A model generated the notes under the pieces. The model had not been told where the DNA came from. It did no database searches and was given only the letters and a program-made list of their open reading frames with translations. The translations under genes were made by a program, and so were the position numbers. Positions 11,209 through 24,848 of a stretch of DNA of 64,000 nt are shown here, piece by piece. How positions within the stretch are numbered: the first letter of the stretch is position 1; every line of letters starts with the position of its first letter. The DNA comes from a virus. The stretch lies in the UHGV virus genome UHGV-1373362; one strand, given 5' to 3'.

Positions 11209-11356
11209 AACAAAATATTGACTAAAGCTTCAGCTTAAGCCTCAGCATTACTAAATCCTAGATATTTAGCATAAGCATTGGGTCAAGAGCTTTAGCTTTA
11301 GCTTTAACGTAGAATGACAGTAAGCTACCTGATAATAAATTATCCACCTATTAAAC

Positions 11357-11410
11357 ATGGGTTCGAATCCCATACGCCCCTCTATTTCTATTATTAACTA
11401 CATGGGGCGT
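11357..11410 (+). other. tRNA-like fragment: T-arm plus acceptor-like hairpin (permuted order)
   Basis: T-arm ATGGG-TTCGAAT-CCCAT, then ACGCCCC, a 23-nt loop, then perfectly complementary GGGGCGT. No 5' acceptor strand lies upstream. Confidence 0.3.
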
Positions 11411-11518
11411 TGGTGAAGGGGTTTAACACGATAGGCTATAATAAAGCTTCACTTTAAAGTTACTGAAAGCATTCTACACATCTAGGGGTTATTACTGAGG
11501 ATTTTTGGGGTAATCTCT

Positions 11519-11592
11519 AGGGGTTTAACTCAATTGGTTAGAGTACATGAGTGTTAATCATGGTGTTGGGGGTTCGAGTCCCCCAACCCCTA
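11519..11592 (+). tRNA. tRNA-Asn (GTT)
   Basis: Acceptor AGGGGTT/AACCCCT, anticodon loop GTGTTAA, T-arm GGGGG-TTCGAGT-CCCCC. Confidence 0.8.
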
Positions 11593-11692
11593 CATTCGTT
11601 TTATTTAGGGTTTAACGGAGACGAGAATTTAGGTTTTTTATTGTATTTGGTTTCTGGTCTGCCAACCTGAGAAGGTGTAACAGGCCAAACAC

Positions 11693-11788
11693 AAAGGGAT
11701 GCTGGAATGGTATACAGGCTATCCATTGATGATAGTTTACACAATTCTAGGAAGTGTATGTCTGAGGGTTCGAATCCCTCTCCCTTTA
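11693..11788 (+). tRNA. tRNA, class-II-like with long variable arm; anticodon loop reads TTG (ambiguous)
   Basis: Acceptor AAAGGGA/TCCCTTT (7 bp perfect). T-arm GAGGG-TTCGAAT-CCCTC. Anticodon stem CTATC/GATAG with loop CATTGAT. About 28-nt variable region, 96 nt total. Non-canonical. Confidence 0.5.
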
Positions 11789-12060
11789 CATCTTGAAGAA
11801 TTTTTCATTTTTCTTGTCATTAAAGGGTTATTTACCTGTGAAGGCCAGTAACCCATTTTTATGTATTATTAATATTCCGTATCTATATACAACTTTAGTA
11901 TTAATATTATGATATTATATGTGGCATAAGTTTGTAATAACACTAATTACACATTTTAACATTAATATGTTTGTGGAGTCATAAAGAAGCAGTATCTTTG
12001 TGTCCATAACCGTTGGGATAACGGGAATGTGTTTGTGTTTTATTTATTCCCATTGTTGAG

Positions 12061-12144
12061 GGGAGTGCGCCAAAGTTGGAGAGTTGGGCTTGACTGTAAA
12101 TCAAGTGCCTTCGGGCTGAGTAGGTTCGAATCCTACCACTCCCA
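12061..12144 (+). tRNA. tRNA-Tyr (GTA)
   Basis: Acceptor GGGAGTG/CACTCCC, anticodon arm CTTGA-CTGTAAA-TCAAG, long variable arm, T-arm GTAGG-TTCGAAT-CCTAC. Confidence 0.8.
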
Positions 12145-12213
12145 CAACAAGATCTGTTAGAGTAACTTCTAACACTGGATGCATTGGTCTGGAGAGATAA
12201 ATGCATCAAAAAT

Positions 12214-12285
12214 GCAGGTGTAGCACAATGGTTAGTGCTCCAGTCTTCCAAACTGGAGATGAGGGTTCGATTCCCTTCACCTGCT
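12214..12285 (+). tRNA. tRNA-Gly (TCC)
   Basis: Acceptor GCAGGTG/CACCTGC, anticodon arm CCAGT-CTTCCAA-ACTGG, T-loop TTCGATT. Confidence 0.8.
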
Positions 12286-12365
12286 CAAAAAGCTGGTTGG
12301 TTGTGTTATTAGGGTACCCTAATACACTGGTTTGCACCAGCCTAAACAAAAATGCAGACAATCAT

Positions 12366-12437
12366 GGGCCGGTAGCATAATTGGGAATGCACTAGTTTTG
12401 CACACTGGAAGATTGGGTTCGAATCCCACCGTGTCCA
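12366..12437 (+). tRNA. tRNA-Ala (TGC)
   Basis: D-arm GCAT-AATTGGGA-ATGC, anticodon loop TTTGCAC, T-loop TTCGAAT. Acceptor GGGCCGG with one mismatch. Confidence 0.65.
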
Positions 12438-12728
12438 CACTTCCTTCTTCCTATAGGAAGTGTCTATAGGCGTGAATGAAAACCGACGGTTACAGGGTTC
12501 CCCAATACTCTCTGAGGGTAATACGAGAACGTTGCTTGAGGACACAACGTAATGAGTCCTTAGTATCACACTCACTTGAACGTGTGAAGAGCATTCGCTA
12601 ATAAGGCTCTTAATAAAGATTTTTAGTGGAGGTTGGATGAAAAGCTAGCAAAGTAATCCAATGACAGGGATCTTAGGTTATTAACTTATGAAGTTACAGT
12701 TATAATTTAGAGATTCCTTTATTAATAT

Positions 12729-12812
12729 CGCAGAGTCGAGAAGTGGTATCTCACTAGTCTCATAAGCTAGAGCATCCGAAAGATGTCGTAGGTTCGATTC
12801 CTACCTCTGCAA
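12729..12812 (+). tRNA. tRNA with CAT anticodon (Met/fMet/Ile2 type) and an unusual long variable arm
   Basis: Acceptor CGCAGAG/CTCTGCA with C1-A72 mismatch, which is initiator-like. D-arm GAGA-AGTGGTA-TCTC. Anticodon arm CTAGT-CTCATAA-GCTAG. 17-nt variable hairpin. T-arm GTAGG-TTCGATT-CCTAC. Confidence 0.6.
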
Positions 12813-12828
12813 CTAATTTAATATATTA

Positions 12829-22844: not shown

Positions 22845-22871
22845 GGAAGCTCACAGAGAGCTTCCTTTTAT

Positions 22872-22957
22872 GGCTGGGTGGCGGAATTGGTAGACGCGAC
22901 GGACTTAAACTCCGTTGGGCAGTAATGCTCGTGGGGGTTCAACTCCCCTCTCAGCTA
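22872..22957 (+). tRNA. tRNA-Leu (TAA)
   Basis: Acceptor GGCTGGG/CTCAGCT (with G-U pairs), anticodon arm ACGGA-CTTAAAC-TCCGT, long variable arm, T-loop TTCAACT. Confidence 0.75.
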
Positions 22958-23000
22958 CAAATCCCTAAGTTTACTCTTTTACCTCAAAAATCTAATAATA

Positions 23001-23228
23001 ATGAACATGTTTGATAAAGTTTCTAGTTATCAGAAGAAGGTTGAGAGTTCATTGGCCTTATTTAATAGGGCAATTGACAAGCTCAGACAGACTGCCGCAG
23101 AGGCAGCATGTACTAAGGCTGAAAAACAGGATAAGATCAAGGACTTACAAATAGAATGTGCTAATCTTGATTCTGTTGTTAGTAGAGCTAATACTTTAGC
23201 TGAAAAACTTGAAAACTTAGTAAAATGA
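23001..23228 (+). CDS. hypothetical coiled-coil protein
   Basis: 75-aa ORF. Confidence 0.4.
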   Translation: MNMFDKVSSYQKKVESSLALFNRAIDKLRQTAAEAACTKAEKQDKIKDLQIECANLDSVVSRANTLAEKLENLVK

Positions 23229-23638
23229 AAGTTTTAGAAATAAAGAATCACCCAATAGACTTCTCTACCCTGACTGAATGTAAAAGTTTCAATGAGTGGG
23301 TCGACAGTGATATATCTAAAGCATTCTATCTCGGTTTCTTCCGAAATAAGTTTAAGGAGGAGATTGAGAAACTAAGATTCAGTGAGGATGGTAGTGGATT
23401 AGCTTTATTAAAGAGTATTGATGCTAATATCTTTGAAGCTAAGAGGTATAGTAAAGAACTTGCAAGGTTAATAGAGCCGTGGATTCATGGTTCTAACAAA
23501 ACATTAGTAATATTAGATATGGTCAATGATGTGCTAGATAAGGTAGATCTGGATGCAGAGGAGGATATATTTAAGATTGCCTATGTTTTAGGAACTTATT
23601 GCGACTACTTATACAAACTATATACTCAAGGTGAATAA
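23225..23638 (+). CDS. hypothetical protein
   Basis: 137-aa ORF. Confidence 0.45.
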   Translation: MKVLEIKNHPIDFSTLTECKSFNEWVDSDISKAFYLGFFRNKFKEEIEKLRFSEDGSGLALLKSIDANIFEAKRYSKELARLIEPWIHGSNKTLVILDMVNDVLDKVDLDAEEDIFKIAYVLGTYCDYLYKLYTQGE

Positions 23639-24041
23639 ATATCTGATTTACACTGATGGTGCCTATTCAAATACTAGGAACCAGGGAGGAATTGGATTTA
23701 TCATCTTAAAGGATGATAAAGAAGTAGCTAGATACTCTAGAATGTATAAGAATACAACAAACCAAAGGATGGAGCAAATGGCAGCTATAGTTGCCCTCGA
23801 ATCTATTGCAACACCTTCAGAAGTTACCATAGTTTCTGATTCTCAGTATGTGGTCTGCACATATACTAAGAATTGGAAGAGAAAGGCGAATCTGGATTTG
23901 TGGAAGAGATTTGATGCAGCAATTGCTTTCCATACTAAGGTTGAATTTTCATGGGTTAAAGGGCATGAAAATGACCAGTACAATAAGATTTGTGATAAGC
24001 TAGCACAAGAAGCTAGTAGGACTATAGAGATTACTGATTAA
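23631..24041 (+). CDS. rnhA: ribonuclease H
   Basis: YTDGAY...E...SDSQYVV...KGH...D layout matches the RNase H1 catalytic residues. 136 aa. Confidence 0.8.
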   Translation: MNKYLIYTDGAYSNTRNQGGIGFIILKDDKEVARYSRMYKNTTNQRMEQMAAIVALESIATPSEVTIVSDSQYVVCTYTKNWKRKANLDLWKRFDAAIAFHTKVEFSWVKGHENDQYNKICDKLAQEASRTIEITD

Positions 24042-24194
24042 TATATTTGTAAATTCTTCTATATGAAATACAAGAAAATGGTAGCTAACTTAGAAGCAGC
24101 TAGGAGATGGTGGGATGCTCAACCTGAATCATTCAAGAAAGCAACTACACGTCCTGGCTCAGTTAAGTGCAAATCTGTTTGTGTAAAATAAAGT

Positions 24195-24600
24195 AACAGA
24201 AGTAGGGATGTAGGGTTGGTAGTGCCCATCATTTAAAGAGTTGCGAGCGGAGGTTAAACTATACTAAGCTGGTATAGCGTGGACAAGCGTGAAGGTTACA
24301 GAACTTACTGGATTCTTCCGTATAACCGCAGGGAGGCGTAAGCATTAATCTCGGAGAGTAGTATTCCAAGTCTGAAATGACGAGGGTTCCTATACGTCGC
24401 TCAATGTGATATTAAGTGTCGGAGCCAGTTATTGATAAGTTCCAATAGTACGAGAGGAGCCTGGAATTAAGATTGGAGGGTACGTGATACCCTTAGCTGT
24501 TAGTAGGAGAACAAAAGTCGGCTAATGTATACGTTAAGTCACTGCACATACGTTCAATGTCAATAACTACCCTTAGAGCATTTGGTGTAACAACACACCT
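24195..24600 (+). ncRNA. candidate structured noncoding RNA (unclassified)
   Basis: About 400 nt with no ORF over 40 aa. GC content is locally higher than the surroundings. It contains many short complementary segments (e.g. GGGATGTAGGG...CCCATC, CCGCAGGGAGGCG). It lies between rnhA and tRNA-Lys. Confidence 0.25.
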
Positions 24601-24610
24601 ACTTCTTTAT

Positions 24611-24681
24611 GACCTCATAGCTCAATGATAGAGCTGCGGACTCTTAATCCGTCGATTAGGGTTTGAATCCCTATGGGGTCA
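24611..24681 (+). tRNA. tRNA-Lys (CTT)
   Basis: Acceptor GACCTCA/TGGGGTC, anticodon arm GCGGA-CTCTTAA-TCCGT, T-arm TAGGG-TTTGAAT-CCCTA. Confidence 0.8.
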
Positions 24682-24710
24682 CCTAAGTCCATTATTTTTT
24701 GTTTGTGTAT

Positions 24711-24749
24711 CACCACCTACTCGTGAGAGTGAGTGGTGTTTTTTATTTT
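24711..24749 (+). terminator. Rho-independent terminator
   Basis: Hairpin CACCACCTACTC...GAGTGAGTGGTG followed by TTTTTTATTTT. Confidence 0.6.
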
Positions 24750-24823
24750 GGTCTAGTAGCTCAGCTGAATAGAGCGTCTCTCTCCTAAAGAGAAGGTCAC
24801 GGGTTTGAATCCCGTCTAGACCG
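24750..24823 (+). tRNA. tRNA-Arg (CCT)
   Basis: Acceptor GGTCTAG/CTAGACC, anticodon arm TCTCT-CTCCTAA-AGAGA, T-arm ACGGG-TTTGAAT-CCCGT. Confidence 0.8.
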
Positions 24824-24848
24824 CAGTTATTAACTTAAAACTAGTAGT

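Follow-up and report, generated by a model that had tools for sequence, protein, structure and literature searches.

The 64,000-nucleotide (nt) stretch of virus genome UHGV-1373362 analyzed here, referred to as the window, contains a block of tRNA genes whose spacers hold a family of structured elements (E0 to E4), downstream of a gene for a Ro60-like protein. With a probability of roughly 0.6, this is the tRNA gene block of a crAss-like gut phage of the zeta group, comprising 24 apparently functional tRNA genes plus decayed copies, interspersed on one strand with small open reading frames and the structured spacers, and the spacers would give rise to small RNAs that form a phage Ro-Y ribonucleoprotein (RNP) with the Ro60-like protein. 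The large tRNA block in itself adds little, being a documented zeta trait; its contents are what matters.

Phage lineage

The window consists of phage DNA. Its long open reading frames (ORFs) are all located on the + strand, and the tRNA block is positioned ahead of a replication module with helicases, a primase, exonucleases, a DNA ligase and NrdD. The G+C content is about 36%, and no structural genes were found in the 64 kb. A megablast search of the whole region against the GenBank phages revealed no close relative; only two single tRNAs matched, in crAss-like phages. The nearest helicase match (53% identity) comes from a 117-kb phage of human faeces that lacks annotation; crAss-like phages rank next, with 27-33%.

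Relatives were found in IMG/VR and metagenomes using the vWA-like protein encoded within the array as an anchor (loci labelled L120, L123, L124, L129, L133, L146, L169 etc.). The related loci share 51-61% protein identity, belong to human-gut and rumen contigs of 105-190 kb, and all carry 15-22 tRNAs at most 10 kb away from the anchor. Among the long relatives, the closest are human-gut and rumen contigs of 166-190 kb. Contig OCHL01000028 (L129; 176,654 bp), whose vWA-like protein is 61% identical to that of the window, is listed as crAss-like group zeta_9 with 22 tRNAs (Yutin et al., 2021, supplement, PMC7886860). The genomes of the zeta group span 145-192 kb (Yutin et al., 2021, PMC7886860), and the 43 zeta genomes tabulated in the 2025 Lera phage survey have 155-190 kb and 4-34 tRNAs (PMC12386605); tRNA blocks of 20-34 genes are already documented for this group. 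In addition, homologues of the Ro60-like protein with 55-70% identity were found on many gut contigs of 170-192 kb, those with 65-70% on contigs of 175-192 kb.

An array of about 24 tRNAs is typical of the family, because zeta genomes carry 4-34 of them. The first-pass annotation of this DNA had described the array as exceptionally large and as a hallmark of jumbo phages. The tRNA numbers of the relatives and the published zeta range contradict the former. Genome size argues against the latter, as the long relatives all measure 105-192 kb, below the jumbo threshold of 200 kb.

The published zeta-group blocks (PMC7886860, PMC12386605) agree with the window in human-gut origin, a G+C content of about 36%, the use of one strand and the position ahead of the replication module. 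These papers count tRNAs and discuss suppressors, whereas spacer RNAs, variable-arm insertions and a helix-43-like RNA are not described there. The text of the 2025 survey (PMC12386605) makes no mention of transfer-messenger RNA (tmRNA), Ro60, TROVE, Y RNA or vWA. No suppressor tRNA was found in the array of the window. In relatives, an amber-suppressor tRNA (anticodon CTA) without counterpart in the window is present (L120 17198-17269 and L133 290-362).

Identification of tRNA genes

ARAGORN identified 24 tRNA genes in the window, all on the + strand between 11519 and 24824, and none elsewhere. With the Rfam tRNA model RF00005 (gathering score 29 bits), 25 matches were found at or above the threshold, which are the 24 ARAGORN genes and 13827-13888. 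Default filters yielded 23 matches at 40-74 bits, and laxer filters added 11693-11788 and 15313-15398 with 40 bits each. All 24 ARAGORN genes also scored 40-74 bits with RF00005 and are supported by two predictors. E-values over the block range from 1e-5 to 6e-15, far beyond chance. The match at 13827-13888 is partial (33.8 bits) and was not called by ARAGORN. Two further tRNA-like remnants remained below 29 bits, 16215-16283 (25.1 bits) and 16911-16978 (20 bits). The features are listed below with their RF00005 scores; all but the last two were called by ARAGORN.

11519-11593, +, tRNA-Asn (GTT), 75 nt; 66.2 bits
11693-11789, +, 97-nt tRNA-like RNA; 40 bits (lax filters); RNAfold
12061-12145, +, tRNA-Tyr (GTA), class II, 85 nt; 48 bits
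12214-12286, +, tRNA-Gly (TCC); 73.8 bits
12366-12438, +, tRNA-Ala (TGC), G3:U70 pair; 47.7 bits
12729-12813, +, CAT-1, initiator-type, 85 nt; 53.6 bits
13007-13081, +, CAT-2, initiator-like; 40.3 bits over model positions 4-67 only
13350-13423, +, tRNA-Ile (GAT); 58.5 bits
13429-13503, +, tRNA-Val (TAC); 73.5 bits
14078-14170, +, tRNA-Ser (TGA), class II; 51.8 bits
15008-15082, +, tRNA-Arg (TCT); 54 bits
15154-15227, +, tRNA-Phe (GAA); 67.1 bits
15312-15400, +, tRNA-Ser (GCT), class II; 40 bits (lax filters)
15744-15817, +, tRNA-Glu (TTC); 63.4 bits
16000-16072, +, tRNA-Glu (CTC); 61.8 bits
16554-16628, +, tRNA-Asp (GTC); 54.6 bits
17052-17135, +, tRNA-Thr (TGT), 84 nt; 56.8 bits
19654-19726, +, tRNA-Gln (TTG); 68.9 bits
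19895-19969, +, CAT-3, elongator-type; 60.2 bits
20520-20602, +, tRNA-Leu (TAG), class II; 55.1 bits
21155-21230, +, CAT-4, elongator-type; 60.5 bits
22872-22958, +, tRNA-Leu (TAA), class II; 53.8 bits
24611-24683, +, tRNA-Lys (CTT); 65.6 bits
24750-24824, +, tRNA-Arg (CCT); 66.5 bits
13821-13896, +, chimeric pseudo-tRNA; 33.8 bits, partial
16215-16283, +, tRNA remnant or pseudogene; 25.1 bits; RNAfold

The large array restricted to the + strand, as proposed by the first-pass annotation, is confirmed by both predictors. Every anticodon that this annotation had listed was found (GTT, GTA, TCC, TGC, GAT, TAC, TGA, TCT, GAA, GCT, TTC, CTC, GTC, TGT, TTG, TAG, TAA, CTT, CCT and four times CAT). 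Its vWA and PurA-like genes are present within the block (ORFs 17545-18501 and 18503-19546). The proposed number of at least 25 tRNA genes agrees with the 25 Rfam matches, but the 25th of these (13827-13888) is a deletion chimera and not a working gene.

A paired acceptor stem of 7 bp and a canonical 7-nt anticodon loop with U33 were seen in most genes. The exceptions are 13821-13896, with an unpaired acceptor, and 11693-11789, which has either A33 or a mismatched stem. By the same features 13007-13081 is weak, with a broken D stem.

A family of structured spacer elements

In the array, a 22-nt repeat, TGAAGG-N4-NN-ACAGCAAA, was identified in four exact copies, compared to 1.55 expected for a looser pattern with two mismatches. 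After each copy, at a distance of 50-170 nt, the reverse complement of the 7-mer is found, with GTT behind it. The elements are:

11309-11477, +, E0, long and most divergent; stem GTAGAAT/ATTCTAC, ACAGTAA; from the permuted-arm scan, seen by eye and not by the covariance model
13169-13342, +, E1, long form with degenerate permuted core; stem AGGGAAC/GTTCCCT; ends 7 nt before tRNA-Ile
14937-15000, +, E2, short form, 64 nt; stem AGGGAAC/GTTCCCT, CUUACAGCAA; ends 7 nt before tRNA-Arg
16905-17044, +, E3, long form; stem AGGGAAC/GTTCCCT, UUACAGCAA; ends 7 nt before tRNA-Thr
19557-19646, +, E4, 90 nt; stem AGGTGAC/GTCACCT; ends 7 nt before tRNA-Gln

The layout of the family consists of a 7-bp closing stem (A-G-N4-C/G-N4-C-U), an unpaired NN-ACAGCAA beside its 5′ strand, a variable interior and G-U after the stem. 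The stem of E4 differs from that of E1-E3 by two compensatory pairs. E0 opens the array; it shares the strand of the Ro60-like gene and starts 0.9 kb after that gene. The 5′ boundary of E3 is given by L123, which is identical to E3 from the first G of GAAGG and differs upstream.

The same architecture was found in the sister strain L203 and in three clades of relatives, with at least 12 different stem sequences in which the pairing is kept. All seven stem pairs were changed on both sides and 100% were paired among the copies compared, a value that is partly circular, as the copies had been chosen by complementarity. Two tests free of this bias are a site test in L120 and the covariance-model searches. 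In the former, the 7-mer located 2 nt upstream of ACAGCAA was considered, for which an exact complement is expected by chance at about 0.02 per site. Seven of the eight ACAGCAA sites on the + strand have this complement within 300 nt; on the minus strand there was none. For the latter, the covariance model R1 was built from ten short copies, including E2 (66.6 bits). It detected E4 (32.9 bits, E 4e-5) and copies of the L124 clade, none of which had been used for training. All R1 matches are on the + strand, and no match was obtained in distant loci without tRNA arrays.

The distance between the 3′ end of the stem and position +1 of the next tRNA was 6-8 nt in every clade. It was found for tRNA-Ile, Arg, Thr and Gln of the window, Cys and Lys of L203, Val, Asn and Lys of the L120 clade, and Pro and Arg of the L133 clade. 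A spacing fixed in this way would also fit spacers that are cis-acting parts of the pre-tRNA, with a stem that sets the RNase P leader, insulates the folding of the tRNA and blocks 5′ exonucleases; the permuted tRNA-like inserts of the long forms, described below, would then be leftovers of tRNA duplications. The existence of short forms without a tRNA-like domain, the location of elements before only some tRNAs and the occurrence of tandem pairs point in the same direction. However, a plain stem leaves unexplained why the unpaired ACAGCAA is invariant and its flanks are conserved across differing stems, and why canonical T-loop and D-loop sequences are kept in the long forms. Moreover, several elements are not followed by a tRNA (L120 6100-6314 and 7204-7333; E0 in the window). 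A cis-acting role is therefore considered rather unlikely, and the spacers are treated in the following as sources of released RNAs.

Spacers acting as a self-cleaving ribozyme, T-box, group I intron or RNase P RNA were rejected, as no Rfam matches to these were obtained at E up to 5. Integron attC sites and inverted repeats of miniature inverted-repeat transposable elements were rejected as well, since the stems covary while the internal motif is fixed. An exact-pattern scan of IMG/VR for TGAAGGN6ACAGCAAA resulted in at least 119 loci with one chance-level match each; two had a complementary stem, neither of them near a tRNA.

The family grades from full tRNA mimics to bare stem-plus-motif forms. 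A mid-size element with a T arm only is located at L120 6100-6314, and a compact permuted tRNA-like element without ACAGCAA at L169 13560-13660. In the window, a hairpin at 22842-22869 (AAGGAAGCUC-ACAG-AGAGCUUCCUU, followed by UUUAU) directly precedes tRNA-Leu (TAA). It scored 18 bits with R1 (E 0.13) and is either a minimal spacer element or an intrinsic terminator of the upstream ORF.

Permuted tRNA-like domains and comparison to YrlA

The window and its relatives were scanned for a T arm followed by an acceptor 3′ strand with its complement just downstream. This permuted arrangement was found at positions 11357 and 16954 of the window and in many relatives. In E0, the T arm (11357-11373) is followed by the acceptor 3′ strand (11374-11380), a 23-nt loop, the acceptor 5′ strand (11404-11410) and a D-like arm. 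In E3, the T arm (16954-16970) is followed by the acceptor 3′ strand (16971-16977), a 17-nt loop, the acceptor 5′ strand (16995-17001) and a D arm. The complete order in E3 is stem 5′ strand, UUACAGCAA, a 41-nt spacer, T arm/acceptor/D arm, a 17-nt spacer and stem 3′ strand, and its helices were recovered by RNAfold. Textbook D arms (TAGCTCAGTTGGTAGAGC) follow the acceptor 5′ strand in several copies of the relatives. The domain is present in E0 and E3, degenerate in E1 and absent from E2 and E4.

This organization matches that of YrlA, the Y RNA-like tRNA mimic of bacteria, whose structure is like that of a circularly permuted tRNA in which the acceptor stem is closed (Chen et al., 2014, PMC4201824; bioRxiv 312249). 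YrlA genes lie at most 4 kb from Ro60, on its strand, and were reported from 22 phages; the RNA of M. smegmatis is cut by RNase P (PMC4201824; bioRxiv 312249). The spacers share with YrlA the terminal stem formed by the 5′ and 3′ ends, the order of T arm, loop-closed acceptor and D arm, and the proximity to a Ro60-type gene. YrlA is also known in mycobacteriophages that carry large tRNA sets and a tmRNA. The YrlA model RF02553 (gathering score 69 bits) matched copies of the relatives with 35.7 bits (E 4.8e-5) and 23.6 bits, both below gathering, and aligned T arm, closed acceptor and D arm of E3 in order. The distance to the Ro60-like gene is 0.9 kb for E0, 2.8 kb for E1 and 4.5-9.1 kb for E2-E4, so that the YrlA rule of about 4 kb on the same strand holds for E0 and E1. 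In contrast to YrlA, the motif GNCGAAN0-1G is replaced by NN-ACAGCAA, each genome has many copies, which are joined to a tRNA that starts 7 nt further on, no tRNA-like domain is present in the short forms, and the partner belongs to the DUF2828/DUF7788 family instead of Pfam TROVE.

The long forms could also be taken for true circularly permuted tRNA genes of the type known from the red alga Cyanidioschyzon merolae, matured by circularization at the closing stem and opening of the acceptor loop. As in the permuted genes of C. merolae and Thermofilum pendens, the 3′ half precedes the 5′ half and the two ends of the transcript pair in a stem; several relatives have 7-bp acceptors with canonical T and D arms, and RNase P is able to open a loop of this kind in YrlA of M. 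smegmatis. Unlike in those systems, no 7-nt anticodon loop can be rebuilt and no bulge-helix-bulge motif is visible, and no splicing endonuclease is known from bacteria, to which the host belongs. The closing stem is furthermore flanked by the invariant GA...GU and by 12-41 extra nt on each side, and the short forms share stem and motif without a tRNA body. Taken together, such a maturation is very improbable; Y-RNA-like molecules are the preferred reading of the long forms.

The Ro60-like protein and a model for released RNAs

8664-10412, +, gene of the Ro60-like protein, 582 aa; phrog_850 'RNA-binding protein'; Pfam DUF2828 and DUF7788

An AlphaFold model of the protein, based on 24 homologues, reached a predicted local distance difference test (pLDDT) value of 74. 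In a Foldseek search of the PDB, the top four matches were all Ro60 (1yvr, 2i91, 9nfa, 9nep), covering the full length with E-values of 6e-8 to 6e-6, 565-603 aligned columns, a probability of 1.00 and a template modelling (TM) score of about 0.4; vWA domains ranked next. According to this model, the 582-aa protein is Ro60-like, with a ring of helical repeats preceding a vWA domain. Its gene, located outside the coordinates of the first-pass annotation, is followed by that of a DUF7873 protein (region 8664-11208), and a search for related loci by means of the latter found none.

The spacers are probably phage Y-RNA-like molecules, because the Ro60-like gene is located just upstream. A comparable system has been described for the Thermus phage phiLo, whose Ro60 binds phage-encoded Y-like RNAs and the host PNPase (PMC12135203). 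In both phages a Ro60-type ring protein is encoded beside Y-like RNAs. The phiLo RNP, which recruits the host PNPase and for which binding was demonstrated, offers a working model for the function of the spacers. The phiLo RNAs, Yrl1 and Yrl2, differ in having the CGAA motif and in not being linked to tRNAs. In the proposed mechanism, the block would be transcribed as long precursors that are cut up by the host, with RNase P generating the 5′ ends of the tRNAs. By the cut at the downstream tRNA, each element would be set free as a small RNA of 50-175 nt that is closed by its stem and carries a 3′ tail of 7 nt. The freed RNAs would then bind the Ro60-like protein and form a phage Ro-Y RNP of the kind shown for the Thermus phage.

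Several observations weigh against this interpretation. The Ro60-like protein has no match to Pfam TROVE, phmmer retrieved no PDB chain at E up to 1, and the assignment to Ro60 depends on a model of pLDDT 74 with a TM score of about 0.4. No element of the window reaches the RF02553 gathering score, the best being 12.1 bits for E3. The YrlA motif is absent or only approximate (UGAAGG in the window, CGAAGG in L123, UAAGAA in the L120 clade). The short forms lack the tRNA-like domain, so that the conserved core is not the tRNA mimic, and the pairing statistic has the partial circularity mentioned above. Each step of the model, from transcription through cleavage by RNase P to binding by the Ro60-like protein, is a prediction.

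Resemblance to Dictyostelium Class I RNA

The only non-tRNA Rfam family that repeatedly matched the short forms is the Dictyostelium Class I RNA (RF01414). The scores were 23.9 bits for E4, 17.6 bits for E2, and 28.9 and 26 bits for copies of L120, all below the gathering score of 41.5. For E2, cmscan aligned GGGAA-CUUACAGCAA...GUUCCCUG against GaUcuCCUUACAGCAA...GagAuCUG. The Class I consensus GaUcuC-CUUACAGCAA...GagAuC-UG and the phage sequence G-NNNN-C-UUACAGCAA...G-NNNN-C-UG are laid out in the same way.

Class I RNAs are 42-65 nt long and have a 6-bp end stem with an invariant 5′ G (Kjellin et al., 2021, PMC7919456). Beside the 5′ strand they carry an 11-nt motif in which T3, C6, C9, A10 and A11 are most conserved, and no members were detectable outside Dictyostelia (PMC7919456). 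E2 has this signature, namely a short stem joining the ends and the 11-nt motif CCUUACAGCAA after the 5′ strand. Both kinds of RNA are about 50-65 nt long and have an end stem of 6-7 bp, a 5′ G, an unpaired CUUACAGCAA, a variable interior and a C-U-G 3′ end. They differ in that the Dictyostelium genes have their own promoter with the Dictyostelium upstream sequence element (DUSE) about 60 nt upstream, whereas the phage copies are located inside tRNA precursors. The likeness may reflect homology or convergence; that about 11 fixed positions agree by chance is unlikely. The literature on DUF2828 and on Ro60 in Dictyostelium contained nothing useful in this respect.

Beyond the reading given at the outset, the spacers may form an undescribed multi-copy family of Y-RNA-like molecules, freed by RNase P and bound by the Ro60-like protein through the stem and UUACAGCAA, with a module matching Class I RNAs, accompanied by hairpin-armed class-I tRNAs and possibly a helix-43 decoy RNA. 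In this full extent, the proposal is tentative and on balance doubtful. If it is true, Ro-Y RNA systems reach the most abundant phage order of the human gut, RNase P-released spacers are a way of making such RNAs, and Class I RNAs and phage spacers share a conserved partner or mechanism. The match of the short forms is a lead on the molecular function of Class I RNAs.

Codon usage and tRNA processing

The anticodon set was compared with the 14,386 codons of 58 ORFs in the window. AGA and AGG account for 77% of the Arg codons, UUA and CUA for 55% of Leu and AUA for 31% of Ile; GUA, ACA, CAA and GAA are favoured as well. Anticodons for all phage-favoured codons are supplied by the array, and pairs ending in U/C are covered by G34 tRNAs. 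The set fits the A/U-rich codon usage of the phage itself, and the tRNAs would sustain phage translation on an A/U-rich genome.

For His, Pro, Cys and Trp no tRNA is present in this strain. None of the 24 tRNA genes encodes CCA, whereas all 24 encode C74 after the discriminator base, and position -1 is a T before most of them. The tRNAs would thus depend on host RNase P, 3′ trimming and CCA addition. Among the ORFs of the window, none was identified as coding for an aminoacyl-tRNA synthetase, a ribosomal protein or a translation factor. The extensive translational autonomy suggested by the first-pass annotation is consequently overstated: tRNAs and a tmRNA are present, but four amino acids are uncovered and none of these proteins was found in the window.

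Unusual tRNAs and strain-level differences

The CAT tRNA with the C1-A72 mismatch reported previously is CAT-1 (12729-12813), in which C1 is opposite A72. Another initiator feature, A11:U24, is present as well (D stem gaga/tctc in the ARAGORN structure). The three G:C pairs 29-31/39-41 are missing; the stem ctagt/gctag provides one G:C and one U.G there. CAT-1 deviates from the class I shape with a variable loop of 4-5 nt, since its variable region of about 17 nt carries an inserted, GAAA-capped 12-13-nt hairpin, catcCGAAAGatg, with a 5-bp stem. The orthologue in relatives is 73 nt long, without hairpin and likewise without the three anticodon-stem G:C pairs, and shows C1xA72 and A11:U24 (cgcggag...ctccgcaac).

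A comparable hairpin (ttcGAAAgaa) was found in the variable region of tRNA-Thr (17052-17135), while the orthologue of the relatives has 75 nt and a 5-nt loop. Similar hairpins are present in the L120 clade in tRNA-Asn (ggcGAAAgcc, 88 nt) and tRNA-Lys (gggaGUAAuccc, 86 nt). In L203, an insertion of this kind is found in tRNA-Trp (87 nt) and tRNA-Lys (86 nt), and the initiator-like CAT tRNAs of the rumen lineages L146 and L169 carry ccGGAAAgg and ccGAAAgg. The hairpins are not assembly errors because they occur in independent samples (CAT-1 in L203, SRR6824194; Thr with the same sequence in L123, ODTZ01018518). In bacteria, long arms are regarded as restricted to Leu, Ser and Tyr, a rule challenged by these arms on initiator, Thr, Lys, Asn and Trp tRNAs. 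No literature on such variable arms in phage tRNAs was found. The L133 tRNA-Tyr (9503-9576) has only 74 nt and is class-I-sized, which indicates that the variable-arm length is fluid in both directions in this phage group.

The hairpin arms may mark an anti-nuclease adaptation, and the tRNAs possibly replace host tRNAs destroyed by anticodon nucleases. Extended to the whole array, this would make it mainly a counter-defence that replaces tRNAs cut by anticodon nucleases or VapC-type toxins, with the arm rendering them a poor substrate. The insertions occupy the same place in different isoacceptors of several lineages and have GNRA or short purine-rich loops (GAAA, GUAA, GGAAA, GGGAAA), and the same tRNAs exist without hairpin in sister clades. 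As a lead in this direction, some of the isoacceptors concerned (fMet, Lys, Asn, Trp) are known to be attacked by VapC, PrrC/PARIS and colicin E5. Against this stands that the anticodon set tracks the codon use of the phage, for which codon supply alone is a sufficient explanation. Counter-defence as the main function is thus improbable.

The remaining CAT tRNAs are of different types. CAT-2 has a GGCTCATAACC anticodon arm, a defective D stem and a U1.G72 pair, and is 76% identical to the initiator tRNA of the relatives. CAT-3, a tRNA for Met or Ile2, has C4:G69 and C5:G68, and no match was found in an E. coli BLAST search. CAT-4 has an unpaired 31/39 position that is conserved in relatives, and matches E. 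coli weakly (79% over 58 nt, to genes annotated as tRNA-Ile in 203 genomes); it is a candidate tRNA-Ile2, a type recognized by TilS in place of MetRS, whose CAU anticodon reads AUA once it carries lysidine. At least one of CAT-3 and CAT-4 is probably tRNA-Ile2, because AUA constitutes 31% of the Ile codons and no UAU anticodon is present in the array.

The 97-nt RNA (11693-11789) has a normal acceptor stem, D arm and T arm and a variable arm of 27 nt. A perfect anticodon stem (ctatc/gatag) leaves the loop CAUUGAU with A at position 33. Decoding by this RNA is uncertain, since the ARAGORN reading 'Ile GAT' needs a mismatched stem. The RNA is identical in L203, and no orthologue was found in other relatives.

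The feature at 13821-13896 begins as the 5′ part of a tRNA-Asn (GTT) and switches within the T arm to the 3′ end of a tRNA-Lys (TTT) of the long-arm kind; its acceptor strands are unpaired. L203, which was obtained from a different sample, is 99% identical over window positions 7135-14121 and contains an extra 790 bp at this site, bounded by the same 15-nt T-arm sequence (window 13872-13886). The 790-bp segment includes a full tRNA-Asn, an 86-aa ORF, Arg-ACG, Trp-CCA, Pro-TGG, Cys-GCA and Lys-TTT. Judged from this comparison, 13821-13896 is a pseudo-tRNA resulting from a 790-bp deletion that removed five tRNAs via T-arm recombination. This clean difference of five tRNAs between strains shows how fast tRNAs are gained and lost in such arrays. 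The remnant at 16215-16283 has a 7-bp acceptor stem, a truncated T stem and an aberrant anticodon arm. The several non-canonical members noticed earlier are real, and with hairpin arms, a chimera and the 97-nt RNA more varied than supposed.

Two further differences concern the spacing of genes. Between tRNA-Gly and tRNA-Ala the window has 75 nt (12289-12363) compared to 14 nt in L203. An insert of 274 nt with a small ORF (16629-16902) is absent from L123, so that tRNA-Asp abuts E3 there.

Conserved non-coding RNA upstream of tRNA-Lys and other RNAs

24205-24599, +, conserved non-coding RNA of about 390 nt; directly upstream of tRNA-Lys (CTT)

Before tRNA-Lys (CTT), a gap of 416 nt is free of ORFs of at least 40 aa. 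Over 408 nt, this gap shares 87% identity with the L120 clade, although the proteins of that clade and of the window agree at only about 54%. The RNA was found in 14 IMG/VR loci (contigs of 77-190 kb) with a conservation of 87-95% across zeta-type contigs, and in none of 185k bacterial and archaeal reference genomes. Its 5′ hairpin (24205-24239), GGAUGUAGGGUUGGUAGUGCCCAUCAUUUAAAGA, matches E. coli 23S rRNA 1050-1088 (nhmmer 19 bits, E 3e-7), which is helix 43 of the GTPase-associated centre, the uL11/thiostrepton site. In the commoner variant of this hairpin, 3 of 34 positions differ from E. coli. A second hairpin (24440-24466) has 13 nt (UAGUACGAGAGGA) in common with the sarcin-ricin loop, and the GAGA loop is replaced in 3 of 14 homologues. 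A few compensatory changes are visible in the RNA, and its minimum free energy z-score of -0.5 is unremarkable. A decoy or binding platform for ribosome-directed factors is our guess for its role, possibly a decoy for factors or toxins aimed at the GTPase centre of the ribosome.

A wider 23S homology was rejected, as nhmmer supports helix 43 only and a likeness to 2530-2600 seen by eye was not significant. The first impression of an RNase P RNA at 24195-24610 was dropped too, with no Rfam match at E up to 5.

Upstream of the array, a tmRNA was identified at 6913-7460 (Rfam 80.5 bits) with G3:U70 and the tag GETEGFRMAA. It has an internal expansion of about 170 nt, which is probably why ARAGORN misses it. 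The tmRNA of the relatives is 342 nt long, has the tag GKNNAISFSREIDEVRIAA and is located inside their arrays. Next to it, at 7462-7670, an 8-bp acceptor-like pairing (ggattaac/gttaatcc) encloses about 190 nt and ends in a T-arm-like gggttcgattccc; it was called by no predictor and may be another tRNA- or tmRNA-like RNA. A RAGATH-1 hammerhead was found at 3352-3424 (Rfam 69 bits; gathering score 56.3). The sequences at 15883-15945, before tRNA-Glu (CTC), and 20396-20489, before tRNA-Leu (TAG), are 84-86% identical to the L124 clade, whereas the proteins are far more diverged, and may be further conserved leader RNAs.

Protein-coding genes within and downstream of the array

17545-18501, +, vWA-like protein gene (phrog_2971); PHROG; anchor for finding relatives
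18503-19546, +, adenylosuccinate-synthetase-like gene (PurA/PurZ); Pfam PF00709, 120 bits; phrog_1211; real start 18503

For the PurA/PurZ-like protein, exact-sequence look-ups gave no record. The family phrog_1211 is annotated as a PurZ-type enzyme for 2-aminoadenine (Z-base) DNA synthesis. The P-type ATPase of the window was uninformative as a taxonomic marker. Downstream of the array, at 26690-34783, a cluster of accessory genes of the stress type encodes an SPFH/Band 7 protein, two TerD proteins, this P-type ATPase (831 aa) and a ferritin-like protein.

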